Below are positions 23,975 to 45,411 of a stretch of DNA of 64,000 nucleotides, in pieces (within the stretch, counting starts at the first letter, position 1; every line of letters starts with the position of its first letter). The notes beneath the pieces are model-generated. The model was not told where the DNA came from and did not search any database. It saw nothing but the letters and a program-made list of their open reading frames with translations. Location: positions 17,308 through 81,307 of the forward strand of contig DATIHJ010000008.1 in assembly GCA_035480855.1 (NCBI GenBank). Reading direction: 5' to 3'. Origin of the DNA: Patescibacteria group bacterium (GTDB taxonomy: Bacteria; Patescibacteriota; Saccharimonadia; Saccharimonadales; JANWIN01). The position numbers were made by a program, and so were the translations under genes.

Positions 23975-25354
23975 ATGACGATTCAGAATTTACCCCTTGA
24001 ATACAACAAAAGCACGCCAATTGGTGTCGTAGGCACTGATCCGTACAATTTTTTGCTATACCAAAAATTCTTTGATGATTTTCAGATTATTACAGAGGTC
24101 AAACAAGATTGGCTACACGACCTTCCCATAGACGATAAGGTGAAGCTGACATGGCTAGGCCGGTCTAAACAATACGGAGAATCCCCAACACGTATGTTAC
24201 GCTCCAAAAAATTTGTAGAGATGGTCAAGGCTGATCCTAAGCGTAAATATGTACTGTATTCACCACTAGATCCTCCATACAAGGTCAATCCGCTAACCTA
24301 CCTCATGAACTCTCCAACTATTGCCCATGCATATGAGAATAAGCGTTATTTCCGTGATGAGTTTGCTGATCTTATACGAGTACCAGAGTATGAAATTAGA
24401 TACATGGGCGATCTAGATCGTGCCGCCGCATACCGTGACTTGCGTGAAAGGTTTGGCGGATCATTTGTGCTCCAAGACGAGGAATCGTCTGGCTCAAAGG
24501 GCACTTATGTCATCCACGACCAAGACGAATATGTTGATGCCGTAAAGAATCTCAAAAAATATTCAGAGGGCCGCACCATTGTAGTATCCCAGTTTCTAAA
24601 GGGAGAAAACTCAAGCATCCAAGTTTGTATTACAAAGCATGGTATTTTTAGCGGTGGTATTCAACGCCAATTGCTAGATAGTAAGTATCTTTGTAATCCT
24701 AAACTAGCTGGCGCAAGCAAATGGTGTGGTGGTGAAGTTGGTACCACTTATCCAGATATTGTCAGGCACCAAGCCCAAGAAATTGCTACCATTGTGGGTT
24801 CTGAACTAGCTAGCCATGGCTACAAAGGTATATTTGGAATCGACTTGATAGTAACACCAACCAATGAAGTCTATGCTATAGAAATAAATGCCCGCTTAAC
24901 TGGTTACTCTCACATAATTAGTGAGTTAGAGCTACTAGAAGGCAAAATACCCATGATGCTCTTACATGCGCTTGAGCTTGGTAACTTTAAATACGAAATT
25001 ACTGACCTCGAGGCACTGCCAAGTAGCGGTGTATACAAAAAGCCCGTGTCACTGTTAATTATGAATAATCCTCTGGCAGAAGACATTACTCTAAAGAACT
25101 ATATTCGTCCTGGTCTGTATAAGTACAAAGACGGTAAAATAAGCTTTGTAAAAGAAGCTTACTCTATAGATACGCTCAAGGGTGATGACACATTTCTAAT
25201 TTTTTCTCGCCATAACACAGGGGACACTATTGAGTCTGGTAAGAGAATACTTAAAATAGCTAAATTTGGTAAAACAATGTCTAAGGGTGAACTCAACACT
25301 AAGACGCAAGATCTGACCAAAGCAATCAAGAAACACTTTAAGTTACCCCAGTAA
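23975..25354 (+). CDS. ATP-grasp domain protein (putative carboxylate-amine ligase)
   Basis: C-terminal half has ATP-grasp hallmarks (GIFGIDLIVTPTNEVYAIEINARLTG; Lys/Glu-rich nucleotide-binding region). Confidence 0.55.
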   Translation: MTIQNLPLEYNKSTPIGVVGTDPYNFLLYQKFFDDFQIITEVKQDWLHDLPIDDKVKLTWLGRSKQYGESPTRMLRSKKFVEMVKADPKRKYVLYSPLDPPYKVNPLTYLMNSPTIAHAYENKRYFRDEFADLIRVPEYEIRYMGDLDRAAAYRDLRERFGGSFVLQDEESSGSKGTYVIHDQDEYVDAVKNLKKYSEGRTIVVSQFLKGENSSIQVCITKHGIFSGGIQRQLLDSKYLCNPKLAGASKWCGGEVGTTYPDIVRHQAQEIATIVGSELASHGYKGIFGIDLIVTPTNEVYAIEINARLTGYSHIISELELLEGKIPMMLLHALELGNFKYEITDLEALPSSGVYKKPVSLLIMNNPLAEDITLKNYIRPGLYKYKDGKISFVKEAYSIDTLKGDDTFLIFSRHNTGDTIESGKRILKIAKFGKTMSKGELNTKTQDLTKAIKKHFKLPQ

Positions 25355-25394
25355 ATTTCAGACTTCATCAAAGCTAACATGCTATCATAAGCGC

Positions 25395-25883
25395 ATGATG
25401 CCGCTTATTGTTATAGGCCTGATAGTTGGTTTGCCAATTTTACTGACGTTACTCATGAGGACTAATGCCGCGATAGTGGTGCTAGCGCTATGCGCGGGTG
25501 CGGTGCTGCAGAAATTTGCTGGAGCAGATACTACCACGCTTTTTAACTCGTTTTCGTCTAATAGCAATGTAGTGACGGTAAGTGCCATCCAGCTTACTCT
25601 GCTGTTTTTGCCTGCCTTGCTGACAATTATATTTTGGCGCAAAAGTATGCGCGGAAGTAAGATGCTCATTAACCTAGTTCCAGCAGTAGGTGGTGGATTG
25701 CTTGCTGCTCTTTTAGCAGTGCCACTACTATCACCTGGCTTACGCCATAATGTGCAGATTAGCCAGGCATGGACCACTCTCCAACAGTTTCAAAGTGCCA
25801 TAGTGGCTGCAACACTTCTAGCAAGCTTCTTAATACTTTGGACAAGTCACCCAAAGCATCCTAAAGACAAAAAGCACAAATAG
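25395..25883 (+). CDS. integral membrane protein, unknown function
   Basis: 162 aa with 4-5 hydrophobic helices and a Lys-rich C-terminal tail. Confidence 0.4.
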   Translation: MMPLIVIGLIVGLPILLTLLMRTNAAIVVLALCAGAVLQKFAGADTTTLFNSFSSNSNVVTVSAIQLTLLFLPALLTIIFWRKSMRGSKMLINLVPAVGGGLLAALLAVPLLSPGLRHNVQISQAWTTLQQFQSAIVAATLLASFLILWTSHPKHPKDKKHK

Positions 25884-25935
25884 TTAATGAGCTAACTGAA
25901 TCTGGGTTTTGTGTAAACTAAGTTAGACACACAAT

Positions 25936-26739
25936 CTAGACACAAGAATAGTCGTAATCTAGATTTTTTGAGACAAACTGGGTTAGCGTTACGGTACTAC
26001 CTGGTGTAAGTGGTGTTACAGAACAATTTGTTTGGGCAGAAGATTGAGATCTTGCTCCGGGAATCCAGTTTTTAAGGTTTAGTAAATTACTTTCAGTGCT
26101 AGGAACTCCGGCTATTTGACCCCATTGAGTGCTTGTAGAGTAAATGCCTACATTTGCACCGATAGAATGAAAGTAAGCAGTCATACCTTCAAGATCCGCT
26201 GTGTTTGTAGATTTATTAGTCTCCCAACTATTGCCGGTTTCAACATCTAACCACCATAAATAGCTTGAAGGATTACTTACACCCCGGATATTAGCGTCGT
26301 CATATGCTTTTGCATAACCGTATATGTAGGCACAGGCTGTAGTATCGCTGCCGTCGCAGGTTCCGTAAGCATTACTAACAGTGGTACCACCATAAGAATT
26401 TGAAGAAGGCCACCAAGAGCCAGTAAGCCCTGGATTGGCTGTATTAACGTATAGGGCAACATTATCCTGTCCAGTTCCACCAGTAGATTTCTGAGCCCAG
26501 GAAAGCTCTGTAGCAAAACAAGGATTAGTGGTGTTGGCAAGACCATTATTCACCCCAACAATTCCAAAAGCCTGTCCCTTTGGTAGACTTTTACTGCACT
26601 GCGGCCATGATATATCGTTGCCTAGTAATACGGGAGGTGTTGTTGGTGTGGGCTTGGCTGCAAATGCAACACCACCCGAGAATAGTAAGACGATAAAAGC
26701 GACAGCAAGTGCTGATATTTTGATGAGAAATTTATTCAT
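25936..26739 (-). CDS. secreted GH25-like (lysozyme/DUF1906-like) glycoside hydrolase family protein
   Basis: Signal peptide; GNDISWPQC...GQAFGIVGVNNG resembles the GH25 N-terminal GxDxSxxQ...GxxFxI pattern; assignment is tentative. Confidence 0.4.
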   Translation of the reverse strand: MNKFLIKISALAVAFIVLLFSGGVAFAAKPTPTTPPVLLGNDISWPQCSKSLPKGQAFGIVGVNNGLANTTNPCFATELSWAQKSTGGTGQDNVALYVNTANPGLTGSWWPSSNSYGGTTVSNAYGTCDGSDTTACAYIYGYAKAYDDANIRGVSNPSSYLWWLDVETGNSWETNKSTNTADLEGMTAYFHSIGANVGIYSTSTQWGQIAGVPSTESNLLNLKNWIPGARSQSSAQTNCSVTPLTPGSTVTLTQFVSKNLDYDYSCV

Positions 26740-26773
26740 ACCTTTATTATAACAAAAGGGTTGTGCTATTAAC

Positions 26774-27193
26774 TTAGGTAGCTTTGTCGCCCTGAAACAT
26801 CCATCGTATTCCGTGTTTATCTGTTAGGGCTCCATAAGCACCAAACGGCATGTCTACAAGCTTATCAATAGTACTAGGGTCAGCTCCTTCTGAGAGTTTA
26901 TTGAAGTATTTCTTGAGTTCAGAATTAGTTGCTCTACTAATGTAAAGGCAAACAGTATTGCCTTGCTTTAGGATTCTTGTGGGATGGAGCCAATCAGAAG
27001 CAGTTATTTCAATCGGGCCACTTTGGAGTTGAGCATGTACAATCTTATTTTGCTTATCTGAAGGAAATTGTGCTGACATAGTAGATTCGCCCACCGTAGT
27101 GATGTCTAGTTCTCCGCCCAAACACTCCTTATAAAAGTTCAAAGCTTCTTTGCAGTTGCCGTCAAATAGCAAATAAGAACCAAATTTAGTCAT
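26774..27193 (-). CDS. VOC/glyoxalase-family protein (PhnB-like)
   Basis: 139 aa with PhnB-like VOC fold; N-terminal LLFDGNCKEALNFYKECLGGEL motif. Confidence 0.6.
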   Translation of the reverse strand: MTKFGSYLLFDGNCKEALNFYKECLGGELDITTVGESTMSAQFPSDKQNKIVHAQLQSGPIEITASDWLHPTRILKQGNTVCLYISRATNSELKKYFNKLSEGADPSTIDKLVDMPFGAYGALTDKHGIRWMFQGDKAT

Positions 27194-27218
27194 ATTGAAA
27201 GAATAACATAAGCCGTTC

Positions 27219-27251
27219 TGGAGGAGCTAAGTGAAAACTATTACAACTAAA
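27219..27251 (-). repeat. degenerate copy (E0) of the 33-bp tRNA-Lys 3'-end-like repeat
   Basis: TGGAGGAGCTAAGTGAAAACTATTACAACTAAA against the consensus TGGAGGGCCTTAGTGGAAAGTATTGTAACTAAA; lies 3' of gene 27300..27761. Confidence 0.6.
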
Positions 27252-27299
27252 TAGCAAGAGATTCCTAAGTTGTTTATCTCGACTTAAGTTTACAAACCA

Positions 27300-27761
27300 T
27301 TAATGTGACCAATGAGTTGTTACGAATACCCCAATTATTATCAAAACCACTAGTAAGCTAATTAATATTGCATTTCTTCGCTTAAATACTTTGACTCCAG
27401 AAGCTATAAAGGCGTCTTCCCAATCCGAAAACTTTCTGTCATCATTGGCGCTATCGACAGCCTTATAAGGCTGGAATGATAACCCTTCGGGCCGCTTTTG
27501 CAACGGTATAATATTGAGCTTAAGTTTTGAGTAGCGACCAGCGGCCATCACATAGAATTTTTTGATTTCGTTTGTTGGTATCTTTACAAGTGTTTCGCCA
27601 TTAAGATTTGTGAATGTAAAAATACTGTTTTCTAACTTCGCTATGCCTTCTGTTGGCTTTATAAGCTCTTTTATAGCTTGTCCAACGGACGTTGATGACT
27701 GACCTTTATACCATAGTGCGTGAGTTTGAATTGATTGACTAAGTTTACTTTGGTTTAGCAT
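27300..27761 (-). CDS. hypothetical tail-anchored membrane protein (array cassette)
   Basis: 153 aa, soluble N-terminal domain plus a C-terminal transmembrane helix; no motif recognised. Confidence 0.4.
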   Translation of the reverse strand: MLNQSKLSQSIQTHALWYKGQSSTSVGQAIKELIKPTEGIAKLENSIFTFTNLNGETLVKIPTNEIKKFYVMAAGRYSKLKLNIIPLQKRPEGLSFQPYKAVDSANDDRKFSDWEDAFIASGVKVFKRRNAILISLLVVLIIIGVFVTTHWSH

Positions 27762-27770
27762 GCGCTAAGT

Positions 27771-27798
27771 ATAACAAAAAGAGCCCCCTTAGGGCTCT
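27771..27798 (-). terminator. hairpin plus T-run (intrinsic-terminator-like) placed immediately before the next cassette start
   Basis: Minus strand reads AGAGCCC-TAAGG-GGGCTCT followed by TTTTTGTTAT; an equivalent hairpin lies at 29654-29678, and a weaker one at about 28376-28394. Confidence 0.4.
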
Positions 27799-27828
27799 TG
27801 GTTGCAATTGGTACAACTAGGGATAGAT

Positions 27829-27861
27829 TGGAGGGCCTTAGTGGAAAGTATTGCAACTAAA
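27829..27861 (-). repeat. 33-bp tRNA-Lys 3'-end-like repeat, copy E1
   Basis: TGGAGGGCCTTAGTGGAAAGTATTGCAACTAAA (32 of 33 to consensus); supplies the TAG stop of gene 27857..28354. Confidence 0.85.
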
Positions 27862-28354
27862 ATTCAGGCGACTCACCCGACAATAATGCAAATCCCTTTT
27901 GCATAGCCACAAATTCAACATTATCTAAGCCCTTGCCAGGAGTTGTTGCTTTGTCTAATTCGTTTTCAGCAAACCAACCAAACTCTGAATGGTCTTCTGG
28001 ATTTAACGCGATACTGCCTAATTCACTAATGAATCTTGCAAAATATACTACTTCAATTGAATGTGAGCCTTTTACTTCATTGGTGTAAGTAAACACATAA
28101 AATGGGTCGCCAACTTCAATCTCCATTCCAAATTCTTCGTCAATCTCACGCTTTAATCCATCAACTGGATTTTCTCCAAAATCTATATGTCCACCAGGAA
28201 GTTCATTGACACTAGGCAAAAACTTCTTTGTTTCTGCTCGTTTTGGCAAAAACACCTTTTCAACGCCATCAAAGTTGTGATGGATAAAAGCACAGGCAGT
28301 AATTACCTGCTGTCCTTGAGCTGGTGTTTCGCTATCGTGGGATACATTTGTCAT
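27857..28354 (-). CDS. NUDIX hydrolase (array cassette)
   Basis: Nudix box GGHIDFGENPVDGLKREIDEEFG. Confidence 0.7.
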   Translation of the reverse strand: MTNVSHDSETPAQGQQVITACAFIHHNFDGVEKVFLPKRAETKKFLPSVNELPGGHIDFGENPVDGLKREIDEEFGMEIEVGDPFYVFTYTNEVKGSHSIEVVYFARFISELGSIALNPEDHSEFGWFAENELDKATTPGKGLDNVEFVAMQKGFALLSGESPEF

Positions 28355-28435
28355 TGCTATATCATATCAAACTAAAAGAGCTATAGCGGCTCTTTGGTTC
28401 AGACTTTCCTACTAGGGTCATCTGTAAGGTCAAAA

Positions 28436-28468
28436 TGGAGGGCCTTAGTGGAAACTATTGTAACTAAA
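28436..28468 (-). repeat. 33-bp tRNA-Lys 3'-end-like repeat, copy E2
   Basis: TGGAGGGCCTTAGTGGAAACTATTGTAACTAAA (32 of 33 to consensus). Confidence 0.85.
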
Positions 28469-28493
28469 ATTAATTCAACTAAACCAACAATTG

Positions 28494-28904
28494 CTAATGT
28501 CTATGGATAGACTTTTTGATAGTATTCGGCAGCTTCCAAACGAGTAATAAGGCAACAACAAATAATAAAACATCAACCACGAACGCTAAAGTATAAAAAG
28601 TGTGCACATACCTATCTTTCAGGTTCACACAATAAGGGTCCTCTGGATTTTTATAGCTATAAGGTACTGGCCAACCAGCTTTGGTGCTGAAATATTCTCC
28701 AAAGATTGATCCTACACCTGCACATAAATCATTGGTTGTATTTGGTCTACTAATTGATAAAAATGATAAAAATCTAGGCGGTGTGCTAGAGCCATAGTTA
28801 CTGTCTGTCAAAGCTACAGTTGAAGATACTTTTATGGTCACTGAAGCCAGCAGTAAAGAAATTAACAGCAGTAAAAGTAATCTTGATAATTTCTTACTCA
28901 TCAA
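28494..28904 (-). CDS. hypothetical secreted/membrane protein (array cassette)
   Basis: 136 aa; Leu-rich signal peptide or anchor and a C-terminal transmembrane helix. Confidence 0.4.
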   Translation of the reverse strand: MMSKKLSRLLLLLLISLLLASVTIKVSSTVALTDSNYGSSTPPRFLSFLSISRPNTTNDLCAGVGSIFGEYFSTKAGWPVPYSYKNPEDPYCVNLKDRYVHTFYTLAFVVDVLLFVVALLLVWKLPNTIKKSIHRH

Positions 28905-28930
28905 ACAAAGTATAACAAACTACTTATGTT

Positions 28931-28963
28931 TGGAGGGCCTTAGTGGAAAGTATTGTAACTAAA
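28931..28963 (-). repeat. 33-bp tRNA-Lys 3'-end-like repeat, copy E3
   Basis: TGGAGGGCCTTAGTGGAAAGTATTGTAACTAAA (consensus). Confidence 0.85.
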
Positions 28964-28990
28964 CTCACTACGACTAAGCCGTTTATGATG

Positions 28991-29644
28991 TCACTTTAAT
29001 TCAGCCAGAACTTGGCGCAGGTCTTTAATAATGTGATCAGCATTATAGGTATTTTCGTGTTCTCTGTGAGGGTGTTTGTAGTAATAGGTTGTTGCACCTA
29101 CTTCTTTCCCCAATTTTAAATCGTCCCCTGAATCGCCAATTACTATAATTTGGTCAAAACCTAAATGTGTTTTTAGATAAGCTTTTAGAGCTTCTGATTT
29201 AGTATTATGTTGTTGATGAGCATTTACGCCAACAATATGTGCATCATTGAAAAAACGTTTGATACCCACTGCACTTAAAAACCAAAGTAAATCATTCTGT
29301 CTTGTGTTAGATATTACTATTTGCTGATTGCCACTCTCAGTTATAGACTTTAAAACGTCTATTGCATGGTCATTAGGCTTAATATGTTTTGCCAGAATTT
29401 CTAAGTGCTCTTCGGCGTACTTAAAACAATCTGCTTGGAGCTTTAGGCATTCTTCCTTTGAAAGTTTCGGCATGAGTCGCTGAAAATACTCATACCACTT
29501 CAAACCATAAAAACGTTCATTATCTTCCTGCGTAAACCTCACATCATAGCCCGCATTGGATAATACGGCATTGGATATATCTATAACGGCTTTTTCGTTG
29601 TCTTTTTCTAAGACACCGTGAAAATCCCAAATAAACAGTTTCAT
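28991..29644 (-). CDS. HAD-superfamily hydrolase-like protein (array cassette)
   Basis: Motif I variant IWDFHGVL (DxH instead of DxD), ISNT, conserved Lys, motif IV GDSGDD. Start taken at MKLFIWDF (29644); the track's longer ORF begins at a TTG that lies inside the upstream repeat hairpin. Confidence 0.5.
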   Translation of the reverse strand: MKLFIWDFHGVLEKDNEKAVIDISNAVLSNAGYDVRFTQEDNERFYGLKWYEYFQRLMPKLSKEECLKLQADCFKYAEEHLEILAKHIKPNDHAIDVLKSITESGNQQIVISNTRQNDLLWFLSAVGIKRFFNDAHIVGVNAHQQHNTKSEALKAYLKTHLGFDQIIVIGDSGDDLKLGKEVGATTYYYKHPHREHENTYNADHIIKDLRQVLAELK

Positions 29645-29653
29645 GTACACATC

Positions 29654-29678
29654 ATAACAAAAGAGCCTTACGGCTCTT
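29654..29678 (-). terminator. hairpin plus T-run directly upstream of the HAD cassette start
   Basis: Minus strand reads AAGAGCC-GTAA-GGCTCTT followed by TTGTTAT; same module as at 27771-27798. Confidence 0.4.
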
Positions 29679-29708
29679 GGTTGCAACTAGTACAACTTGG
29701 GATGGATG

Positions 29709-29741
29709 TGGAGGGCCTTAGTGGAAAGTATTGTAACTAAA
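29709..29741 (-). repeat. 33-bp tRNA-Lys 3'-end-like repeat, copy E4
   Basis: TGGAGGGCCTTAGTGGAAAGTATTGTAACTAAA (consensus); with E1 it shares about 50 further conserved bp (GGCTCTTGGTTGCAAyTrGTACAACTwGGGATrGAT). Confidence 0.85.
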
Positions 29742-29779
29742 CTTATAAGCTCAACACATATCTCAAATTTATAATAAAC

Positions 29780-30232
29780 CTACGTTTCTACTCGAACAGG
29801 TGTCATAGCGACAGCATACTCTTGTCCGAGTATTTTCACTGCCAATCCGTGTACCGCTGTGTGTAGCTCATTCCAGGTTTGAGCTCGTAACTTATCAAAA
29901 TTTGGTGTAAATGAGTGAACGTCAACGATTGGGTCTATTAAATCGGCATCAAACGTCCAGCTAACGTCATCAACGCCTCCGGTCGCCCAAGCTGATTGAC
30001 GTCTAACCTCGTATGCACCAGCGTCATGATAGAGGGCAGTTGTAATCCAGTGACTTTTACCGGGAGTACGAGTTTTAATTTCATTGTTTACTGTGCAACC
30101 ACCCGTGAAGTCAATTACAACTCGCCCAACTGCCTGCAAGACTTGTTGGCGAAACGGCTCTCTATTTGCTTGACGCAATGCTTCTTCTCGATGATATTTT
30201 GCGATTCTTTCACTCGGTCGCAGGTCTGCCAT
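29780..30232 (-). CDS. hypothetical protein (first cassette next to tRNA-Lys)
   Basis: 150 aa, no motif recognised. Confidence 0.4.
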   Translation of the reverse strand: MADLRPSERIAKYHREEALRQANREPFRQQVLQAVGRVVIDFTGGCTVNNEIKTRTPGKSHWITTALYHDAGAYEVRRQSAWATGGVDDVSWTFDADLIDPIVDVHSFTPNFDKLRAQTWNELHTAVHGLAVKILGQEYAVAMTPVRVET

Positions 30233-30354
30233 AGTACCCTCCTATTTGAGTAAATTATCTACTTACAAATAATCTATAGCAAGCATAACTGCAATAAAAT
30301 CTAATCGATTGTTAGTTACAGTAGTTTTCAATTAGGTTGACATCAGAGGTCACT

Positions 30355-30431
30355 TGGAGGGCCCAGTGGGACTCGAACCCACGACACGCGGCTTAAAAGG
30401 CCGCTGCTCTAACCAGCTGAGCTATGGGCCC
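30355..30431 (-). tRNA. tRNA-Lys (anticodon UUU), CCA encoded
   Basis: Hand-folded cloverleaf: acceptor GGGCCCA/TGGGCCC, D-arm GCTC-AGCTGGTTAG-AGC, anticodon stem GCGGC/GCCGC with loop CTTTTAA, T-arm GTGGG-TTCGAGT-CCCAC, then TCCA. Confidence 0.85.
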
Positions 30432-30557
30432 GCACTTGAATCTATTAGCTCAATAGAACAGGGGTGATTATCTCTGATTACACCTTAAAAGTCAATCGAA
30501 GCTGTTAACCCAATTATTGCTACACTTTGGCTAAGAACAAATACTAAGCTAAATAAA

Positions 30558-33387: not shown

Positions 33388-34119
33388 ATGTCAGGTCACA
33401 GTAAGTGGAGCACAATTAAACGCCAAAAGGGAGCAAAAGATGCAGCCCGCGGTGCTGTATTTACAAAACTTGGCAATAATATTGCTGTAGCTGCTAGGGC
33501 AGGTGCCGATCCAGAAACCAACTTTACGCTTCGCCTAGCCATAGATAAAGCCAAGGCTGCCAACATGCCAAGTGCTAACATTCAGCGTTCCGTTGACCGT
33601 GGCAGCGGCAAACTGGGTGGCGCACAAATCCAAGAGGTAATGTATGAAGGTTATGGTCCCGGCGGCGTGGCTATTTTAGTAGAAGCTGCTACAGACAACA
33701 TTAACCGTACTTTACCAGAAGTCCGCTTAGCGTTTAGTAAACACGGCGGCAATATGGCAGAGAAGGGTGCAGTGGCTTTCCAATTTGAACATAAAGGGAT
33801 GATCCGCATAAAAGGCAATGGAGACGATGTAATGTTAACGGCCTTGGATGCTGGCGCCCAAGACGTAGAAGAAGATGGCGAGGAATCAATTGTATATACC
33901 GAATCCAAGGAACTAGCCAAAGTCCGCCAAGGCTTGCAAGAAGGGGGTATGGAAGTACTTGAGGCAGAGCTCACTTATGTGCCAACTAATACCGTAGAGG
34001 TTACAGACAAAGAAGCTGCAGGAAAGATAATGCGACTAATGGATGCCTTAGATGATGTAGACGACGTCACCTCCACCCATGTAAATTTCGATATAGCTGA
34101 TGATCTGTTGGACGGTTAA
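33388..34119 (+). CDS. yebC: YebC/PmpR-family transcriptional regulator
   Basis: MSGHSKWSTIKRQKG N-terminus is diagnostic of YebC; 243 aa. Confidence 0.85.
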   Translation: MSGHSKWSTIKRQKGAKDAARGAVFTKLGNNIAVAARAGADPETNFTLRLAIDKAKAANMPSANIQRSVDRGSGKLGGAQIQEVMYEGYGPGGVAILVEAATDNINRTLPEVRLAFSKHGGNMAEKGAVAFQFEHKGMIRIKGNGDDVMLTALDAGAQDVEEDGEESIVYTESKELAKVRQGLQEGGMEVLEAELTYVPTNTVEVTDKEAAGKIMRLMDALDDVDDVTSTHVNFDIADDLLDG

Positions 34120-34592
34120 TGCGTGTTTTAGGCATTGATCCGGGAACTGGAATACTAGGGTTTGGCGTCATTGAAGTGGATAAACGCGGTAAAGCCCAGC
34201 TGGTAGATGGCGGAGTTATTCGTACGCCAGTTAAAGAAGACGATACTGTGCGGCTGCAAACCATCTTTGATGAACTCACAGACATTATTATGAACACTAA
34301 GCCAGCGGCTATGTCTGTAGAAAAGCTTTTCTTTGCCCAAAATGTGACTACAGCCATGACAGTGGCACAGGCCCGAGGCGTGGTGCTGCTTTGTGGCAAG
34401 CAAGCTGGCCTTGAAATATTTGAATACACCCCACTGCAGATAAAGCAAGCTCTAACGGGCTATGGCCGAGCAGACAAGCAACAGATTCAGGAAATGGTGC
34501 GGGTAATACTCGGACTCAAGGACATCCCAAAACCAGACGACTGCGCCGATGCACTTGCTGCTGCTATCTGTCACAGTATGACTATGAGATAA
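34119..34592 (+). CDS. ruvC: Holliday junction resolvase RuvC
   Basis: VLGIDPGTGILGFGV N-terminus, RNase H-like fold, correct length. Confidence 0.85.
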   Translation: MRVLGIDPGTGILGFGVIEVDKRGKAQLVDGGVIRTPVKEDDTVRLQTIFDELTDIIMNTKPAAMSVEKLFFAQNVTTAMTVAQARGVVLLCGKQAGLEIFEYTPLQIKQALTGYGRADKQQIQEMVRVILGLKDIPKPDDCADALAAAICHSMTMR

Positions 34593-34599
34593 TAGTGAC

Positions 34600-35181
34600 G
34601 TGATAGTGACATTATCTGGAGAAATTAGCGAAAAGCTGCAAGAGCTGGTTGTTTTAGAAGCCGGCGGCATAGGCTACGGCTTATTTGTAACGGTTGAGGA
34701 CTATGGTCAGCTAAAGCAAGGCGACACTGCCAAACTCTATGTATATGAGCATATCCGCGAAAGCGCGTATGACCTGTATGGATTTGTTAGTCCAGATACC
34801 AAGGCCTTATTCGAGCAACTTTTAAGTGTAAATGGTGTAGGCCCTAGAATGGCGCTTAATATGTTAAGTATTGGTTCGTCCAGCGAAGTGAAACACGCAA
34901 TTGCTGGTGGTGACACCAAGTTTATACAGGCAGCCAATGGTGTTGGTAAGCGCGTGGCTGAGCGGGTTGTTGTAGATCTAAAAGATAAAGTGGGCTTACT
35001 TAGTAGTGCATCTACCGATTCTCTGTTTGTTAGCAATGCCGCTGCCCAGCAGGACGAAGCCGTACAAGCGCTTGTTAGTCTGGGCTATACCCCTGCCGAT
35101 GCACTGGCAGCACTGGATGGCATAAAACCAGATTTGCCTGCTGAGGATCGTATCAAGCAAGCACTAAAGGGTAGGGCGTAA
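34600..35181 (+). CDS. ruvA: Holliday junction branch-migration protein RuvA
   Basis: OB-fold N-terminus, helix-hairpin-helix region ([13 protein letters not shown]) and C-terminal domain; GTG start. Confidence 0.8.
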
Positions 35182-36212
35182 TGGCAATTGAACGAATAAT
35201 AAACACCAGCTCAGCCGATGACCCACAGGAAGAAGAGCTAGAAGTAACCCTACGCCCCAGGGATTTCAAAAATTATATAGGCCAGCAACGGCTCAAACAA
35301 AATTTACAGCTGGCTATTGCCGCCGCCCTAAAGAGGGGTGAGCCGCTGGACCACGTGCTGCTTCACGGACCACCAGGACTAGGCAAAACCACTATGGCTA
35401 GTGTTATTGCTAACGAAATGGGAGCACAAATACGTATCACAAGTGGGCCTGCTATTGAGCGAGCAGGTGATTTAGCCAGTTTACTTACAAATCTTCAAGA
35501 TGGAGACATACTTTTTATTGACGAGATCCATCGGCTGCACCGTAGCGTAGAAGAAGTACTCTACAGCGCCATGGAGGACTTTAAATTAGACATAATGCTT
35601 GGTAAAGGACCTAGTGCCCGTAGCCTACGCCTGGATTTACCAAAGTTTACAATCATTGGCGCTACCACACGTACCGGTGCGCTGGCAGCACCTCTGCGTG
35701 ATAGGTTTGGCATGATTCACCGTCTGGAGTTCTATCAACCAGATGAAATCACTCAGATTATTTTAAGAGCTGCCAAAATCCTAGGGATTAAAATTGATAA
35801 AAAGGCAGCAGACGAGCTTGCCCAACGGGCCCGACTAACTCCCCGGATTGCCAACCGGCTTTTGAGACGAGTTAGGGATTTTGCTGATGTAAATGGCGAC
35901 GGCATAATCGATGCAGTAATTAGTCGTGATGCCCTAATACTACTTGAAATTGATGACCTGGGCCTTGACCCAGCTGACAGGATGCTGCTAGGAGCTATTA
36001 TTGACAACTACCAAGGTGGTCCTGTGGGCGTAGAAACACTGGCGGCTTTAACTGCTGAAGAGCGTACTACCATTGAAGATTTTTATGAACCATACCTGAT
36101 GCAAATTGGCTTACTAGAACGAACGCCGCGTGGCCGCAAAGCCACACACAAAGCATACAAACATTTAGGCAAGCCTAAACCAAGTAACTCTGGCCAACCA
36201 AAGTTGCTATAA
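35181..36212 (+). CDS. ruvB: Holliday junction helicase RuvB
   Basis: AAA+ Walker [16 protein letters not shown] sensor, C-terminal winged helix. Confidence 0.9.
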
Positions 36213-36838
36213 TGGTTGCCATGGCACAAACAGAGACAATGTCAGCCCACCGGCTGCAGGCCTGTGAGGGTATGAGCGCTATGGGCAAAAAGCTTTTTCG
36301 TTACGTCGAATTTGACGATACCGAGGAGTTAATTGCTGAAATACGCAAGCATCCAATTGGTGCGTTTGCGCGGGGCATAACCGGAGCATTTATTAGTCTA
36401 ATTATAGTTTTAGCTACCAGTGCATTGGCTCTAAACCTGGACAATTTTAATATAGATTTTGGAGATAATAGCCATATTATCAAGCTAATACTTATTGCTG
36501 TTGGTCTTGTACTGGGACTATTGGCTTTGGCTGCAACAGCTCTGACGGTAGTTATTTACAGAAGCAGCGTTATTTTTATCACCGATCAGAAAATCGCCGA
36601 GGTAATGTATGTGAGCATCTTTAACCGAAAGGTGACACAGCTTGGCGTGGGCAGCGTTGAGGATGTTACAGTGCAGCAACGAGGATTGTTCCCACGGTTA
36701 TTTAATTATGGCACTATTGTGGTAGAAACAGCCGGAGAAGTAGAAAATTGCAATTTTACTATGTTGCCTAACCCTAATTTCTACTCACAGAAAATTATCC
36801 AAGACCACGAACTTTATGTCCAAAAATATGGAAATTAG
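36212..36838 (+). CDS. membrane protein, possibly bacterial PH-domain (YdbS/YdbT-like)
   Basis: 208 aa; two transmembrane helices flanked by soluble segments; weak similarity only. Confidence 0.35.
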   Translation: MVAMAQTETMSAHRLQACEGMSAMGKKLFRYVEFDDTEELIAEIRKHPIGAFARGITGAFISLIIVLATSALALNLDNFNIDFGDNSHIIKLILIAVGLVLGLLALAATALTVVIYRSSVIFITDQKIAEVMYVSIFNRKVTQLGVGSVEDVTVQQRGLFPRLFNYGTIVVETAGEVENCNFTMLPNPNFYSQKIIQDHELYVQKYGN

Positions 36839-36868: not shown

Positions 36869-37177
36869 CTACTCTTGGAATGGGTTGTTGCGGGCTTGGT
36901 TGAATAGAGATTGTACGTCGACACTATTATCTTGAAGCTGTTTGATTTTATCAACAACTGATTGATCAATTTTAGGCGATTGGCTAGTTTTAAGTTTGGC
37001 AGTTATATCGTCTTGGCTGGGTGTTTGGTTATTTAGCACGTTTATTCGATAGACTAATATGCTGTAAATGCTAAATAAGATCACAATAAATATAAGTACT
37101 CTATAGCGCCGAAGTAATTGCCAAAGCTCTGGTAATTTTGCCTTTATTGTCTTAAGATCTAATTTTTGCTTTTTCAT
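36869..37177 (-). CDS. small single-pass membrane protein, last gene of the pilus operon
   Basis: 102 aa, N-terminal transmembrane helix; overlaps the pilO end by 4 nt. Confidence 0.35.
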   Translation of the reverse strand: MKKQKLDLKTIKAKLPELWQLLRRYRVLIFIVILFSIYSILVYRINVLNNQTPSQDDITAKLKTSQSPKIDQSVVDKIKQLQDNSVDVQSLFNQARNNPFQE

Positions 37178-37782
37178 GGCTTTATATACGCATCCAAAAC
37201 TAGTGTGAACGTTAGTGTATTAGGATTTTGAGGGTTTGGGATAATGGTAACATTAGCTACCTGAGCGGTACGGCGGTTTTGTTCTAAATTATTTAAAAAG
37301 TTAATAAGCTGAGTATATGATATTGGGTTTGATGCGTCCTGCTGTATGGTAATTTGCATGTCTAAGACACCAGGGATGCCCTTGACCGGCAGTACTTGTG
37401 TGAGTTTATTAGATGGTGTGGTTGTTGGCAAACCACTGCTACTGGAACCAAGTGTCGATGCTGGAAATGTTATAGCCGATAGTTTTATAGAGTTGTTATT
37501 GGCAAAATTAACAATTTCTCTGACAGCTTCAGCCTGATCTTTGTCCTGCGGCACAATAATTTTGGCTTCTTTTTCTAGTTCTGAATACTTAGCTACATCT
37601 TTTTTAGCTTTAGCTAGTGAAACCTGTTGTTGGTCAAGTACAGCGTTATTAAGCTTAAGATCAACCAATTTCTGTGATCGTTGCTGGAGCATTTGGTCGC
37701 CTAGAATTGCTGTTACAAAAATACCAATACCAAGTAGTGAAGTAATTACAATCATGCCATAAAATACTCGTTTGCCATTCAT
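37174..37782 (-). CDS. pilO: type IV pilus assembly protein PilO-like
   Basis: N-terminal transmembrane helix, coiled coil, then periplasmic domain; position after pilM-pilN. Confidence 0.5.
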   Translation of the reverse strand: MNGKRVFYGMIVITSLLGIGIFVTAILGDQMLQQRSQKLVDLKLNNAVLDQQQVSLAKAKKDVAKYSELEKEAKIIVPQDKDQAEAVREIVNFANNNSIKLSAITFPASTLGSSSSGLPTTTPSNKLTQVLPVKGIPGVLDMQITIQQDASNPISYTQLINFLNNLEQNRRTAQVANVTIIPNPQNPNTLTFTLVLDAYIKP

Positions 37783-38387
37783 GGTTTGCTTACCTTAGAT
37801 TGAGAGTTATTTATAAACAAGAATGGATTACTTTTAGCAAACTGTGCTCGAATATTAATTGTGCAGGGATAACGGGGATTCGTTGCGCCAGAAGTTAAGC
37901 AGTTAACGTTTAATATGTCCGCCTTATTAAAAATTTTATTGGCAGGGTCCTGCAAATTCACCTGTACTTGTGTAGCCGTATTATAGTCGCTAGCAATGGC
38001 AGCTAAATCAATACCGCCTTGGGTTTGACTTATTTTTAGGTCAGTTAGCCTAGCGTTTGCTGGTATTGCTGTGCCGATTTGCTGAATCAGTTTAGAAAAC
38101 AGCACTTCACGCGATAACACTTGTACGACAAGTTTTAGGCTCCCAGAAATATCCTGAACTTGTTTTTGTGTTTCACTTAGCTGCTGAGAGGCAAGTTCGT
38201 CAGATGTTTTTACCTTTTGTTGGGTGTAATCTTGAATTGATTGGTTCATGTAGAATTGCCCAAATAACACAACTACCAATACTCCCAAAATTGAAAGAGA
38301 AAACGCAATTGACCATCTCAGTAGCTGTGTATTACGCCTACCATAAACTAAGTCTTGTTTGACATTTGGCGGGAGTAAATTGATCAT
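37779..38387 (-). CDS. pilN: type IV pilus assembly protein PilN-like
   Basis: Begins MINLLP (the INLLP motif that binds PilM), single transmembrane helix, coiled coil. Confidence 0.6.
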   Translation of the reverse strand: MINLLPPNVKQDLVYGRRNTQLLRWSIAFSLSILGVLVVVLFGQFYMNQSIQDYTQQKVKTSDELASQQLSETQKQVQDISGSLKLVVQVLSREVLFSKLIQQIGTAIPANARLTDLKISQTQGGIDLAAIASDYNTATQVQVNLQDPANKIFNKADILNVNCLTSGATNPRYPCTINIRAQFAKSNPFLFINNSQSKVSKP

Positions 38388-39466
38388 TCAAAAACCTCTC
38401 GAGGTTTAATCAGGGCTAGTCCAGAAGCAGTTACGTATAATGAACGTTCAACATTATCTGTGGTTTTTAGATGTGACATGCGAATATGTTGAAACGGATC
38501 GGATGTGCGAACAGGCAGACGCAGAGCATCCGTTAAATATTCATTTAAGCCTGGCATATTCGCTCCACCGCCTAAACTAACTATTTGAGTAATTTTTTTC
38601 TTGGTTCCCGAACGTTCTTCGTAATATCTAATCATTCGCCGGATTTCTTTTAATAGCTGAGAAAGAATCGGTTGCAAGGCTTCATGGATTTCATGCTGTT
38701 TTTTACTCTGATCAATTCCATATTTAGTCTTTATAACTAAAGCCTCTGAATAAGATACATGCAGTTTTTGAGCAATATTAGCAGTAAAATTATCTCCGCC
38801 ACCAGCAACTGTACCGGTCACTATTGGAGAACCGTCAAAAACTGTAATATCTGAGGAAATGGAACCAAAATCAATTAAGACTGTAGGAGTATCACTATCA
38901 TCTGTGTGAGTAAATAAGCGTGAAACCGCACTGGTAGTAGTTTCCATTGCGACTACCTCAAGACCAAGTAACTGGCTAAGTTTAATGTATGAATCAATCA
39001 CTGTTTTGGGTACGGATACAGTAAATAGTTCCATTTCTTTATCATTGCTGCTGGTTATGTCGAAGTCGCTATATAGATTATCAATCGGTACAGGAATGTA
39101 CTGTTCTGTAGCTGTTCGAATTGCATCTGCAAGTTCCTTATTACTAAGCTTAGGTAGTTTTATTAAGCGACTAAAAGTTCTTGTGGCGGGGATACCCATA
39201 ATTACTCGACGAGTGGTAATTTCACCCTGAACTTGGTTTTTAAACACGTTTTGTATAGATGCTGCCAAAGTTTCTGGGTCAATTATTACGCCGTCTTTTA
39301 TCGTCTTTGGGTCAAAATCACCAACTCCGTAAGCAAGCGTGACTGGTTTGTTATTTTCCCAACCAATTTGCATGACTTTAACCGAGCGAAATCCAATGTC
39401 TAGCCCAAAAACTGGTTTATCATGGTAAAAAAATGCTGAAGTATTCATGCCCACCTCACCAAGCAT
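38384..39466 (-). CDS. pilM: type IV pilus assembly ATPase-like protein PilM
   Basis: Actin-like/FtsA-like fold (GLDIGFRSVKV, DFGSISSDITVF), 360 aa, precedes pilN. Confidence 0.75.
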   Translation of the reverse strand: MLGEVGMNTSAFFYHDKPVFGLDIGFRSVKVMQIGWENNKPVTLAYGVGDFDPKTIKDGVIIDPETLAASIQNVFKNQVQGEITTRRVIMGIPATRTFSRLIKLPKLSNKELADAIRTATEQYIPVPIDNLYSDFDITSSNDKEMELFTVSVPKTVIDSYIKLSQLLGLEVVAMETTTSAVSRLFTHTDDSDTPTVLIDFGSISSDITVFDGSPIVTGTVAGGGDNFTANIAQKLHVSYSEALVIKTKYGIDQSKKQHEIHEALQPILSQLLKEIRRMIRYYEERSGTKKKITQIVSLGGGANMPGLNEYLTDALRLPVRTSDPFQHIRMSHLKTTDNVERSLYVTASGLALIKPREVFE

Positions 39467-39509
39467 AACTGATTATGACAATATAGCATATTCATGGTTT
39501 ACTCATCCG

Positions 39510-40946
39510 CTACAAGCGGTGATAATCACTCGCTCGCCAAGCTAAGTCGACTGGTATTTGATTAGTTGGAAAAACGGGGTCTAGTTTAAGGTCAAATGGA
39601 GTACCCGGGTTTGTGGCAATGTATATGTTTTTACCAGACACACCGCCAAGGGCGGGGCTGGCTGACCATTTAGTTTTATCCAGGCAAATTCCATTAGTTG
39701 CTAACAAATACACGGCGGGTGCATTAGAGGTTCCGTTATTTCCAAGATAAATTGATCCACCATATGGACAAACTCCCGTCTTGGAGGCCGGATCTGTTCC
39801 GTAAGCAATAAATACAATCGGACTGCTCCCAGGAGTGCTCTGTATACTATCAAAATTGATGGTTCCTTCTACAAATACGAATTTTAAACTGCCGCTTGTA
39901 TTATTGAATGTAGGTGTACAAGCAGTTGCTGCGCATAGATTAGCGCGTAAGTGCACATTATCGGTTATGTTGTACTGACCAGTCGCCAAAGATAAATCAC
40001 CCATATTTCCGCAGCTAGTGCTAATGTTACTGCCACTATCTGGATAATGAGATTTCTTAGAATTGCCAGGTCCAGGAATATTGCGAGGAAATGCACCAGT
40101 CGTCCAATCATTACAATTGTTAGCGTTGGTATATGAAGCATCCATATATTGTGACCAAGGAATATAAGTTGACTGTATGGTCGAAATTGAACCTTGGTTA
40201 GCAGTAACATTGAAGCTTGCATTACTAGAATTTCCGGGAGGGTTGATGCAGTTATTGAAAGCCATGTTTATATTAGTTTTGGTTTGGGTCGGATCGGTAA
40301 AAGAGGCAGGCTTGACTAAATTACCAGGACCGCCAATAGAACAATTTGAAGCGCCAGTGTTTTTACCAGCAACTGTTATATTTTCTGCCACAATATTGGT
40401 GGTATTTTTGTTTGTATTAATATAGCCATTTACATAAATGTCTTTGGCAAAAAGATTTTTTACTCCACTTTGAAGTTCGAGTATGTTGCGACTCACTACA
40501 GATGAGGATGTAGTAGTTGATGTTCGAACAGCAGTTATGCCTATAGTGCGGCTATAATTGGCTTGACTTGAGTTTGCTGGAACATAAACCCTGCCAGTCG
40601 CAGTCACAATTTTTTGTTTATCATTTGACCCTGCCGCCACAGTTACGGTGTATGTTGATTTATATAAGTTGTTTTTTAATAGCTGTATCTGTGTACCACC
40701 AGTACCGGTATAAGTATTATTACCACCATTTAGGGTAGCAATTGCTGCATCAGCACCAGATTCAGCAGCGTATTGGGCCTGTAATAGCATTACACGCCCG
40801 CGTGCGCGGCTTAGGTTGGAGTTTGCCAGGACAGCAAGAGCGGATATTACAGTTGTTAAAAATAGAGTTACCACAAGTATAGATACAATTATTGAGCCGC
40901 TTTGTTGCCTAGTAGATGATGTACGGTGACTAAATAACAAGTTCAT
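39510..40946 (-). CDS. PilX-like pilus-associated protein (N-terminal anchor, large Asn/Thr/Ser-rich extracellular domain)
   Basis: N-terminus QQSGSIIVSILVVTLFLTTVISALAVLANSNLSRARG resembles the PilX_N domain; 478 aa. Confidence 0.45.
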   Translation of the reverse strand: MNLLFSHRTSSTRQQSGSIIVSILVVTLFLTTVISALAVLANSNLSRARGRVMLLQAQYAAESGADAAIATLNGGNNTYTGTGGTQIQLLKNNLYKSTYTVTVAAGSNDKQKIVTATGRVYVPANSSQANYSRTIGITAVRTSTTTSSSVVSRNILELQSGVKNLFAKDIYVNGYINTNKNTTNIVAENITVAGKNTGASNCSIGGPGNLVKPASFTDPTQTKTNINMAFNNCINPPGNSSNASFNVTANQGSISTIQSTYIPWSQYMDASYTNANNCNDWTTGAFPRNIPGPGNSKKSHYPDSGSNISTSCGNMGDLSLATGQYNITDNVHLRANLCAATACTPTFNNTSGSLKFVFVEGTINFDSIQSTPGSSPIVFIAYGTDPASKTGVCPYGGSIYLGNNGTSNAPAVYLLATNGICLDKTKWSASPALGGVSGKNIYIATNPGTPFDLKLDPVFPTNQIPVDLAWRASDYHRL

Positions 40947-40947
40947 C

Positions 40948-41724
40948 TTAGGTATTCCTTAGTGCAATTCGGATAATTGTATTATTTACTGTCGCGTTTG
41001 TTTTTTGAAAGACTGGTTTGGTCGTAAGGTTCAGGGTTAGTTCAAGCACATCAACTGCTGCAAAATCTGGACCTGCATAGCCATTTATATTTGGGTCCCA
41101 AATTGATTGAAAGTTAACCAGGTTACCGGTTCTGGAGAAATAGCGGGTATCAACAGATGCAATGAAGCTAGATATTACCTTATCAGCTGGACAGGTTGAC
41201 GTTGCAAGATTGGGTGGGCAAGTTGTTTTTAAGCGATCCCCACTAGCATTTGGATTTGCCAATGTTCGTGCTAACAATTGTTTTGTCGATCCATTTAGAT
41301 AAAATACATATTCATCATCGTAATGTTGGTTACCGTTCATTATAAAAGCACCTGTGTTATCTTGGCTGTAACGTCTAAAATATAACAACGGTGTAGTCGT
41401 ACCTGGACTTCCAACGGGAGTGTTTCCCGGCACAGCATGAATCGGAATCCAATAATTGCCAGAACCATTTGCTGGATCGACATTTTCAGTATTTGCATCG
41501 GGGATACTGTTTTGATTAATCAAACCAGAAGATTCTCCAACGGTATTACGAATATAATCCTCAGCATTTAAGCGGGAAACAAATGTATCTAGGTCAGCTT
41601 CCATAAGGTAGCCGCTAGTCCAGAAATTGAACATAAAAAACATAATTACGGTTACAAAAATGCCCGTAACAATTATTACGCTCATGAGTTCTACGAGTGT
41701 GAAGCCGTTTTCGTTACTTTTCAT
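40948..41724 (-). CDS. type IV minor pilin (prepilin-type N-terminal cleavage/methylation domain)
   Basis: N-terminus NGFTLVELMSVIIVTGIFV, i.e. G/FTLVE prepilin peptidase site plus a hydrophobic helix. Confidence 0.55.
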   Translation of the reverse strand: MKSNENGFTLVELMSVIIVTGIFVTVIMFFMFNFWTSGYLMEADLDTFVSRLNAEDYIRNTVGESSGLINQNSIPDANTENVDPANGSGNYWIPIHAVPGNTPVGSPGTTTPLLYFRRYSQDNTGAFIMNGNQHYDDEYVFYLNGSTKQLLARTLANPNASGDRLKTTCPPNLATSTCPADKVISSFIASVDTRYFSRTGNLVNFQSIWDPNINGYAGPDFAAVDVLELTLNLTTKPVFQKTNATVNNTIIRIALRNT

Positions 41725-42173: not shown

Positions 42174-42190
42174 GCTAGTGGTTATTATAC

Positions 42191-42218
42191 AAAAAACCGG
42201 ACGCTTATGGTCCGGTTT
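42191..42218 (-). terminator. intrinsic terminator/attenuator downstream of the major pilin gene
   Basis: Minus strand reads ACCGGAC-CATAAGC-GTCCGGT followed by TTTTTTGTAT. Confidence 0.5.
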
Positions 42219-45408: not shown

Positions 45409-45411
45409 AGT

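Follow-up and report, generated by a model that had tools for sequence, protein, structure and literature searches.

We examined a 64,000-bp stretch of the 115,848-bp contig DATIHJ010000008.1 (assembly GCA_035480855.1, contig positions 17,308 to 81,307), which derives from a member of the Saccharimonadales and is referred to below as the window. Its tRNA-Lys(UUU) gene is followed by a tandem array of short gene cassettes, set apart by direct repeats of the tRNA 3′ end. Seven genes lie between 25936 and 30232, all on the tRNA strand (Table 1); the VOC gene and a gene for a secreted protein of 267 amino acids (aa) stand beyond the last, decayed repeat copy. Pfam supports the assignments of the VOC, NUDIX and HAD genes, and of none of the three other array genes or the 267-aa gene, while the HAD gene product matches a deposited 217-aa protein exactly. 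The HAD, NUDIX, VOC and small-protein content described in an earlier note, which was made from the sequence alone, is therefore correct. Clustering at 90% identity leaves the six cargo proteins, gene A through VOC, as singletons, and close relatives of both the 267-aa distal gene and the membrane protein of the adjoining flank exist elsewhere. The GC content of the cassettes is 35-39%, compared with 41-48% in the backbone.

The last nine nucleotides of the tRNA gene, GGCCCTCCA, include the encoded CCA and occupy 30355-30363, where the plus strand reads TGGAGGGCC, the reverse complement; they form the proposed anchor, or core, of the repeats. On the plus strand the 33-mer TGGAGGGCCTTAGTGGAAAGTATTGTAACTAAA occurs at 27829, 28436, 28931 and 29709, with 1, 1, 0 and 0 mismatches respectively, against an expected count of 0 (100 shuffles), and the exact 9-mer is present in the window at the tRNA and in these four good copies only. 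The fifth copy, at 27219, is decayed: over 37 nt its identity is 73%, and R1, a sequence model derived from 30 copies of the window and of nine other contigs, gives it 19.2 bits (E = 2.7e-4). Its distal part can be aligned with long copies from other genomes. Scanning with R1 and the 33-mer found no credible copy in the window outside 27219-29745. All copies lie downstream of tRNA-Lys(UUU) in the orientation of the tRNA, the junction repeats are 92-100% identical to one another, and the start-to-start spacings are 610, 607, 495 and 778 bp. The scan, the shuffles and the R1 score bear out the four near-identical 33-bp copies and degenerate fifth copy reported in the earlier note, and its account of orientation and position (confirmed with ARAGORN and the scan), of the 9-bp identity to the tRNA end including CCA (exact in the four good copies) and of units of 495-778 bp also stands. 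Its further match, of the adjacent AGTGG to the tRNA T-stem, holds only at a 1-nt offset, and its placing of a copy 3′ of every listed gene is right for five genes and wrong for VOC, after which there is no copy.

Architecture of the repeat unit

On the tRNA strand the order of elements is gene stop, X arm, core, Y arm and next gene. Units measure approximately 0.3-2 kb and comprise their own extended -10 promoter, one or two genes and then the site. In an alignment of 30 copies, taken from the window and from nine related contigs, the core GGCCCTCCA is the sole block that all conserve, one base differing in three of them. The X arm is 24-66 nt long and has beside the core an invariant-to-near-invariant motif, AGTTGCAATAG-N9-11, beyond which several subfamilies have 30-40 further conserved nucleotides. 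Hence the repeat is not limited to 33 bp, as had been supposed; the unit is larger, with similarity over some 55-66 nt on the X side (direct repeat family D2) and with shared Y arms.

The Y arm, of which there are a few recurrent types, holds a trailer and a terminator as well as the -10 box of the gene that comes next. At the level of consensus matching, a TGnTAnnnT-type extended -10 box precedes every cassette gene of the window, and a terminator scan placed hairpins in three of the five window Y arms. On the tRNA strand, the copy at 28931 is followed directly by the -10 box of the next gene and the copy at 28436 by a 65-nt trailer plus terminator; the Y arm at 29661 is 88% identical to 27787-27828 (direct repeat D4), and both of these type (i) arms have additional AGTTG motifs. 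With its own promoter and this arrangement of arms each unit is therefore a self-contained expression module, and from the position of the Y arm after the core it follows that the upstream unit, or the tRNA itself, draws its terminator from the Y arm of the next unit. The repeat falls in the 3′ untranslated region of every cassette transcript, ahead of the terminator, and the stop codon of the NUDIX gene falls within the repeat copy at 27829.

Smaller motifs recur in the arms. In the Y arm of cassette 1, 18 nt past the tRNA 3′ end, the part of the repeat that does not match the tRNA recurs in inverted form (80-84% over 24-25 nt; inverted repeats I1-I4) without the 9-nt core; the Y arm after the core at 6486 in a related contig, L016, holds a similar inverted X-like stretch. 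A motif of about 23 nt, CAGATGACCCTAGTAGGAA, is conserved in the trailer that follows tRNA-Lys or internal cores in distant Saccharimonadales genomes. In many Y arms TTATGCTTAAAC, as TTATG(C/T)TTAAAC, stands exactly 6 nt past the core. This motif loosely recalls the XerD half of dif, the 28-bp site of 11-6-11 layout that XerC/XerD recognise in Xer-dependent elements (IMEX, dif modules); the left arm does not fit, and TTATGCTTAAAC can equally be read as an extended -10 box.

Table 1. Positions of the tRNA-Lys(UUU) gene, array units, flanks and recurrent motifs (window coordinates unless a contig is named; L numbers denote related contigs)
Feature	Position	Strand	Evidence or remark
Promoter-like site of tRNA, TTGACT-17-GATAAT	30467..30495	-	conserved upstream of tRNA in L003 (1190-1249)
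tRNA-Lys(UUU)	30355..30431	-	ARAGORN; Rfam tRNA, 72.5 bits; sequence
Y arm of cassette 1	30233..30354	-	holds inverted X-like copy (30312-30336), promoter and ribosome-binding site of gene A
Cassette 1 cargo (gene A), 150 aa	29780..30232	-	no family match; singleton cluster at 90% identity
Repeat copy, core + A-type X arm; 3′ site of cassette 1	29709..29745	+	0 mismatches; R1, 37.4 bits
Y arm, type (i)	29661..29708	-	AGTTG-motif repeats, then terminator hairpin into -10 box of HAD gene
Cassette 2 cargo, HAD-family hydrolase, 217 aa	28991..29644	-	Pfam HAD_2, 1.5e-18
Repeat copy, core + X arm	28931..28986	+	33-mer; direct repeat family D2; R1
Cassette 3 cargo, 135 aa, hydrophobic N- and C-terminal segments	28494..28901	-	open reading frame (ORF); no Pfam match
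Repeat copy, core + X arm	28436..28491	+	33-mer identical to copy in metagenome contig L004; R1
Y arm, type (ii), trailer + terminator	28370..28435	-	same sequence directly follows tRNA-Lys in L002, L003, L006, L017
Cassette 4 cargo, NUDIX hydrolase	27857..28354	-	Pfam NUDIX, 1.8e-13
Repeat copy, core + X arm	27829..27884	+	33-mer identical to copy in L008; R1
Y arm, type (i), with terminator hairpin	27779..27828	-	runs into -10 box of gene E; D4; terminator scan
Cassette 5 cargo (gene E), 153 aa, hydrophobic C-terminal tail	27300..27761	-	no family match
Decayed repeat copy	27219..27278	+	core mutated to TGGAGGAGC; long A-type X arm still recognisable
VOC/glyoxalase-family gene	26774..27193	-	Pfam; L027 orthologue, 84% nucleotide identity
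Secreted protein, 267 aa	25936..26739	-	distal end of array; no family match
Backbone flank, ATP-grasp protein + 162-aa membrane protein	23975..25883	+	
Backbone beyond island, YebC-RuvC-RuvA-RuvB-bPH_2	33388..36838	+	ORFs; bPH_2 Pfam match
X arms with periodicity	27838-27884, 28445-28491, 28940-28986; L004 324-377, 1219-1272, 4029-4082, 5242-5295		
CAGATGACCCTAGTAGGAA sites	28397-28419; L002 1286-1320; L003 1335-1360; L017 16300-16330; L027 2405-2430		
TTATG(C/T)TTAAAC, examples	27200-27218; L001 1716-1740; L004 3205-3227; L006 1442-1465; L017 16660-16680		

When the distal part of the X arm is read in the frame TGG AGG GCC, on the other strand from the tRNA and the cargo, most of its variation falls at codon position 3. 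Among the four B-type copies of L004 the entropies at positions 1, 2 and 3 are 1.8, 1.6 and 12.4 bits (p = 1e-4), with a ratio of nonsynonymous to synonymous variation (pN/pS) of 0.16 and an implied peptide WRATV(D/K)AVATAIQGSQQLHIS; the five long A-type copies imply ...KLQDNPxLFIAEF (p = 0.002). Every A-type copy has retained GGAGGG and, after a spacer of 6 nt, GTG with an open frame of 17-26 codons, while the would-be start is GTA or GTT in most B-type copies; open frames across the X arms reach only 17-45 codons. The 24 nt next to the core have zero third-position variation, which implies constraint at the DNA level there. A profile of 22 X-arm peptides retrieved nothing at E up to 10 from 5.8 billion proteins, and no protein in that collection has three 5-residue words in common with the concatenated consensus peptide; on these null searches a full-length gene starting in the X arm, be it an integrase, an excisionase or other, was rejected. 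The frame on the tRNA (minus) strand was rejected as the coding source, having TGA stops where paralogues have TGG or TGT and being broken in three of four L004 copies, and so were the C-termini of the cargo, since the genes beside the block have no relation to one another and end at it or before it. Candidate explanations for the periodicity are a fossil 5′ end of a gene of a parental autonomous element, or a translated micro-ORF.

At the RNA level, RNAalifold found 0 conserved pairs among 28 aligned sites and Rfam gave no match, either at the gathering threshold or at E up to 5, on which grounds an RNA element or tRNA-like 3′ structure was rejected. Reverse transcription primed by tRNA was rejected by reasoning, in that the cassette mRNAs carry the tRNA-end sequence and not its complement.

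Distribution, occupancy and reassortment among related genomes

The same architecture is found in 11 other Saccharimonadales contigs. Searching with a tolerant pattern of 24 specified bases, we obtained matches in 2 of 185,579 species-representative genomes, both of them Saccharibacteria with the match beside tRNA-Lys(UUU), and in six metagenome contigs. Three of the latter have a tRNA-Lys(UUU) called by ARAGORN and in a fourth (L008) the gene is cut by the contig end; on all four the repeats lie downstream of the tRNA and in its orientation. Overall, tRNA-Lys(UUU) stands beside the repeats on six of the eight matching contigs, L004 and L007 not reaching one, and wherever a contig has a tRNA the repeats adjoin tRNA-Lys(UUU). 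An intact tRNA followed by same-orientation direct repeats of its 3′ end, delimiting the insertions, is present in L001-L003, L005, L006, L008, L016 and L017 as well as in the window. Further copies in the related contigs have the same core and other X arms; there are eight on the 6.2-kb contig L001 (six downstream of the tRNA and two upstream), five in L004 and three in L016. Across the contigs every copy has the orientation of the tRNA, and only the two upstream copies of L001 do not lie downstream of it. R1 recovers all of these, and adds an extra weak site in L016 and, in the complete genome CP064993 (L017), a decayed site that a single cassette separates from tRNA-Lys. The tRNA-Lys gene of L001 (1639-1715) is itself unusual, having two mismatches at the base of the acceptor stem and an Rfam score of 57.5 bits, compared with 72-74 in four other loci; the odd dinucleotide AT before its GGCCCTCCA also occurs beside the core of a repeat in the same array (3881).

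A generic dispersed element, which the earlier note had considered, is contradicted by the absence of spread within the window and by public-genome matches that fall only at tRNA-Lys; with one locus in the window and no conserved pairing, the repeats also differ from repetitive extragenic palindromes, miniature inverted-repeat transposable elements and generic terminators. There were 0 matches in IMG/VR to the specific pattern or the general pattern and no blastn match in phage and plasmid collections, on which grounds a phage or plasmid origin was rejected.

In relatives the island occupies a variable interval within a conserved backbone, HrcA-GrpE-DnaK-DnaJ-(GGDEF)-x-ATP-grasp-membrane protein on one side and (ComEC)-YebC-RuvC-RuvA-RuvB on the other, with tRNA-Lys and the island between them. 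The ATP-grasp and membrane-protein genes lie just upstream of tRNA-Lys, on the same strand, in most relatives, and the side from YebC to bPH_2 is syntenic with L011, L014, L018 and L020. The relatives can be listed by the identity of their ATP-grasp protein to that of the window: at 81% L011-L013 have the tRNA and no site at all, and L016 has three intact sites and one weak site with toxin-antitoxin pairs in its cargo; at 78% L014/L015 have no site; at 66-70% L018-L020 have no site, and at 66% L017 has one decayed site. R1 found no site within the conserved backbone of L011, L014, L018 or L020. The range is thus from empty to one to at least eight repeats (in L001), the window having five, and toxin-antitoxin modules are cargo in both L001 and L016. 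Variable occupancy among relatives, anticipated in the earlier note, is therefore observed in the form of empty sites and of different cargo; the invariant gene order that would have spoken against its reading is not, the site being empty, decayed or differently filled from one relative to the next.

Relative to the ATP-grasp and membrane-protein flank, tRNA-Lys and the whole array (25884-30557) are inverted in the window in comparison with L003, L011, L014, L016 and L020; the tRNA is inverted in L018/L019 too. The left breakpoint of the window inversion showed no trace of a site. ComEC lies between the island and YebC in several relatives and is absent from that position in the window.

X and Y arm types assort independently and the switch point is the core. 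Y type (ii) is preceded by the tRNA body in L002, L003, L006 and L017 (four genomes) and by X arms of at least three types, A-type and others, in the window, L001, L002, L016 and L027; the N6-TTATGCTTAAAC-hairpin type is likewise preceded by the tRNA in L001, and in L007, L017 and L004 it comes after X arms of type A or B. Alleles of the 33-mer are identical between the window and unrelated contigs, namely at 28436 with L004 and at 27829 with L008. Cargo is also shared and reordered. A RelB-YafQ cassette with 80% nucleotide identity occurs in L001 and L016 at different array positions and with different neighbours. In L027 (GCA_009772735) X-core sites flank the orthologue of the 267-aa gene and likewise that of VOC; the former stands before the latter, opposite to the order of the window, and an MTHFR gene adjoins them; from these bounding sites it follows that both genes are former cassettes whose own sites have been lost in the window.

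Elsewhere in the window, a type IV pilus set (PilM, pilins with the N-methylation motif, T2SSF and T2SSE) lies next to recA and recX (36869-47223 and 47332-49972), and together with the latter represents a plausible toolkit for DNA uptake and recombination near the island. At 3958-5896 two adjacent genes, each with DUF1246 and DUF1297, lie in a purine-biosynthesis cluster (PurK, SAICAR synthetase and adenylosuccinate lyase). A PhdYeFM/ParE toxin-antitoxin pair was called in the Logan contig L021 of the same strain (8167-8673, approximately 5990-6500 of the window), between the purine-biosynthesis genes and an HD-domain gene and with no association with the repeat.

Probable cassette accretion and its alternatives

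The array is best read as a gene-cassette island that has grown by addition and has its anchor in the tRNA-Lys(UUU) 3′ end; such islands occur in a subset of Saccharimonadales (Saccharibacteria). At a probability of roughly 60%, we think that miniature cassettes lacking an integrase accreted site-specifically at this end, through an enzyme encoded elsewhere. Such an enzyme, a recombinase of the tyrosine or large-serine type, would act on the core of a circular cassette, which would recombine with the identical 9 nt at the tRNA end or with a core already in the array. Insertion would regenerate an intact tRNA and push older cassettes distally, where their sites would decay and their genes become fixed, as may have happened to the VOC and 267-aa genes. 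Restriction of the repeat to one locus, variable occupancy and the role of the core as the switch point between arms all support repeated site-specific integration at the tRNA gene, as the earlier note proposed. Cargo that recurs in other arrays at other positions, 33-mer alleles shared between contigs, the accessory character of the cargo (low GC content, singleton proteins, toxin-antitoxin modules in relatives) and the precedent of Dehalococcoides, described below, also count in favour of this reading. Nor is the tRNA match a chance effect, for the core is the sole universally conserved block, equals the tRNA terminus and is where the arms switch.

Several observations weigh against cassette accretion of this kind. 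The Pfam search found no tyrosine or serine recombinase, transposase or replication gene among the 50 window ORFs tested, so that the earlier statement that no integrase is visible in 64 kb is correct, and none is present in any array contig examined (approximately 60 kb of islands); the recombinase search covers the window and the array contigs. There is no direct sign of movement, since the same-strain assemblies retrieved are identical where they overlap; contigs from SRR9179559-62 belong to the same strain (99.99% identity), and their ends fall inside repeats. Only 9 nt are common to the tRNA, which is short for a tRNA attachment site, and two of the L001 copies lie upstream of the tRNA (196-204 and 902-910). 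The codon-like substitution pattern of the X arm is not predicted by a plain protein-binding site. Finally, homologous cassettes can be aligned only from the promoter, 50-60 nt past the upstream core, for which reason cargo comparison does not fix the cassette boundaries to the core, and the proposed crossover point comes instead from the reassortment of arms.

The likeness to integrons drawn in the earlier note is sound with regard to function and fails with regard to membership, there being no intI and no attC-type structure. Taken further, it suggests, with a real but less than even chance of being correct, a gene-capture platform in Saccharibacteria that would be analogous to the integron and evolutionarily independent of it, in which the tRNA-Lys(UUU) 3′ end would serve as attI and a dedicated recombinase encoded elsewhere would insert, excise and shuffle gene-sized cassettes that bring a promoter and terminator of their own. 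The platform would be a single tRNA-Lys(UUU) gene, and the site a non-hairpin sequence of some 35-110 bp with an X arm and then a 9-nt mimic of the tRNA; the codon-like X arm could be part of the recognition code of the enzyme or a cassette-borne micro-gene.

Alternatively, the repeats could be fossil attachment sites, that is, attR scars of larger elements (prophages, integrative and conjugative elements (ICEs), integrative and mobilizable elements (IMEs) or tycheposon-like elements) that have been whittled down, the genes between them never having been mobile cassettes. Such elements normally leave tandem direct repeats of a tRNA 3′ end behind, no enzyme is encoded nearby, the distal copy has decayed, and a gene of such an element could have left its fossil 5′ end as the codon-like pattern of the X arm. 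We nevertheless regard this as unlikely. More than 35 units on 12 contigs are uniformly 0.3-2 kb long, each with an intact promoter, gene or genes and complete X arm, and among them there is no fragment of a mobility gene (integrase, replication or capsid). Such regularity is not expected of random deletion; moreover, the same units of cargo plus site recur elsewhere in a different order, and none among 5.8 billion proteins starts with the X-arm peptide.

It is slightly less probable again that the junction repeats serve as portable homology, in which case naturally competent cells would take up DNA and RecA would swap or insert cassettes through repeats of 35-110 bp with no dedicated recombinase. 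RecA, RecX, RuvABC and a type IV pilus set are encoded in the window, relatives have ComEC in the same interval, the junction repeats are 92-100% identical within the window, and identical site alleles recur across contigs. However, X and Y types that are alike only in the 9-nt core are still joined exactly at the core, and 9 nt is far below the usual requirement of RecA; nor would homology alone explain why the core equals the tRNA terminus and the array starts at the tRNA.

That the repeat is a functional cis element kept by selection, whether as an RNA processing or stability signal that mimics the tRNA 3′ end, a regulator site or a micro-ORF on the opposite strand (GGAGG-N6-GTG), seems improbable to us. 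Its position upstream of the terminator, in the 3′ untranslated region of all cassette transcripts, would suit such a role, as would the start region and 17-26-codon frame kept by A-type copies and the third-position variation of the distal X arm, significant in both families of copies (p = 1e-4 and 0.002). Yet the 28 sequences share 0 conserved pairs, Rfam gave no match even when E values up to 5 were allowed, GTA or GTT takes the place of the required start codon in most B-type copies, and the lack of third-position variation in the core-proximal 24 nt points to constraint on the DNA itself; in addition, the restriction to tRNA-Lys, the empty sites and the reassortment of arms are left unexplained. 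That the cassettes form a true integron array, or else a cluster of attC sites lacking integron integrase (CALIN), is very improbable, for although the units are short, mostly single-gene and in one orientation with a 3′ site each, and relatives have toxin-antitoxin cargo, IntI is absent, a tRNA gene serves as anchor, promoters and terminators come with the cassettes, and the sites are not imperfect palindromes, show no conserved pairing and have no R″/R′ boxes (judged by eye against the consensus).

Known systems and significance

Like an integron, the array has a fixed platform, here the tRNA end in the place of attI, short cassettes in one orientation with family-like 3′ sites, mixed site types within one array and, in relatives, toxin-antitoxin cassettes. 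Five same-orientation sites at spacings of 495-778 bp, with unrelated cargo, agree with an integron array, in which at least two such sites lie less than about 4 kb apart. In contrast to integrons, the platform here is a tRNA gene with no intI by it; an IntI-type recombinase, which a CALIN does not require, is absent beside the array (50 window ORFs and the array contigs). The sites have no hairpin symmetry, with 0 conserved pairs in 28 sites, an indirect indication from RNAalifold. Integron cassettes are mostly promoterless and expressed from Pc, whereas those described here have their own extended -10 boxes, and terminators. Membership thus fails because IntI and attC hairpins are missing and the cassettes carry their own promoters and terminators.

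Among published systems, the nearest are the ssrA islands of Dehalococcoides and the tycheposon islands of Prochlorococcus. The former lie in tandem downstream of ssrA with copies of its 3′ end between them, and have an extra conserved motif just upstream of each repeat that does not match the RNA gene; sixteen of the islands have a six-gene integration module that includes a CcrB-like serine recombinase, and fifteen, without that module, were proposed to be cis-mobilizable elements (McMurdie et al. 2011; PMC3146451). In common with our array they have a streamlined genome, tandem islands at one small-RNA gene and direct repeats of its 3′ end, and the extra motif would be the counterpart of the X arm. 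They differ in the length of the repeat (20 bp, compared with 9 bp here), in the anchor (the transfer-messenger RNA, compared with tRNA-Lys) and in being multi-gene islands, whereas the more than 35 units considered here are of 0.3-2 kb and have no mobility gene. Tycheposon islands are tRNA-proximal and additive, with partial tRNA copies that separate insertions and mark whole elements or their debris, and the elements, kilobases in size, encode a tyrosine recombinase and replication functions of their own (Hackl et al., bioRxiv 10.1101/2020.12.28.424599). The likeness here lies in a small genome, in partial tRNA copies between neighbouring insertions and in additive growth at a tRNA, with the newest insertion next to the tRNA and older ones decaying distally; the difference lies in regular single-gene modules, a conserved non-tRNA arm in each, and no integrase or integrase fragment found. 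Uniform gene-sized units, the lack of mobility genes across more than 35 of them, the combination of a 9-nt tRNA identity with a long non-tRNA arm, and the host lineage set the array apart from both systems.

The cis-mobilizable elements (CIMEs) of the streptococcal ICESt1/ICESt3 family are decayed ICEs or IMEs of several kb. They resemble the present cassettes as non-autonomous, att-flanked units that accumulate in tandem at a fixed site, using the integrase of another element; they differ in that the units here are gene-sized and stand in long arrays, and no helper element was seen. The terms CIME and site-specific accretion are used here as in PMC3146451 and PMC5704250. A full-text literature search on islands, integrases and integrons in Saccharibacteria and Patescibacteria found no description of this locus.

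To our knowledge, the gain and loss of accessory genes in the very small genomes of the Candidate Phyla Radiation is poorly understood. If our reading is correct, one hotspot at which mobility-gene-free, single-gene modules are stacked would provide a simple and testable route of gene flux in this radiation, and a compact way for ultra-small, host-dependent genomes to trade accessory genes. The platform cannot be lost, because its anchor is an essential tRNA gene. The 9-nt core and X-arm motif, in the form of R1, provide a search handle with which the cassette pool could be mapped in metagenomes and the recombinase sought by co-occurrence. The array would then represent a second, independent solution to the problem that integrons solve.

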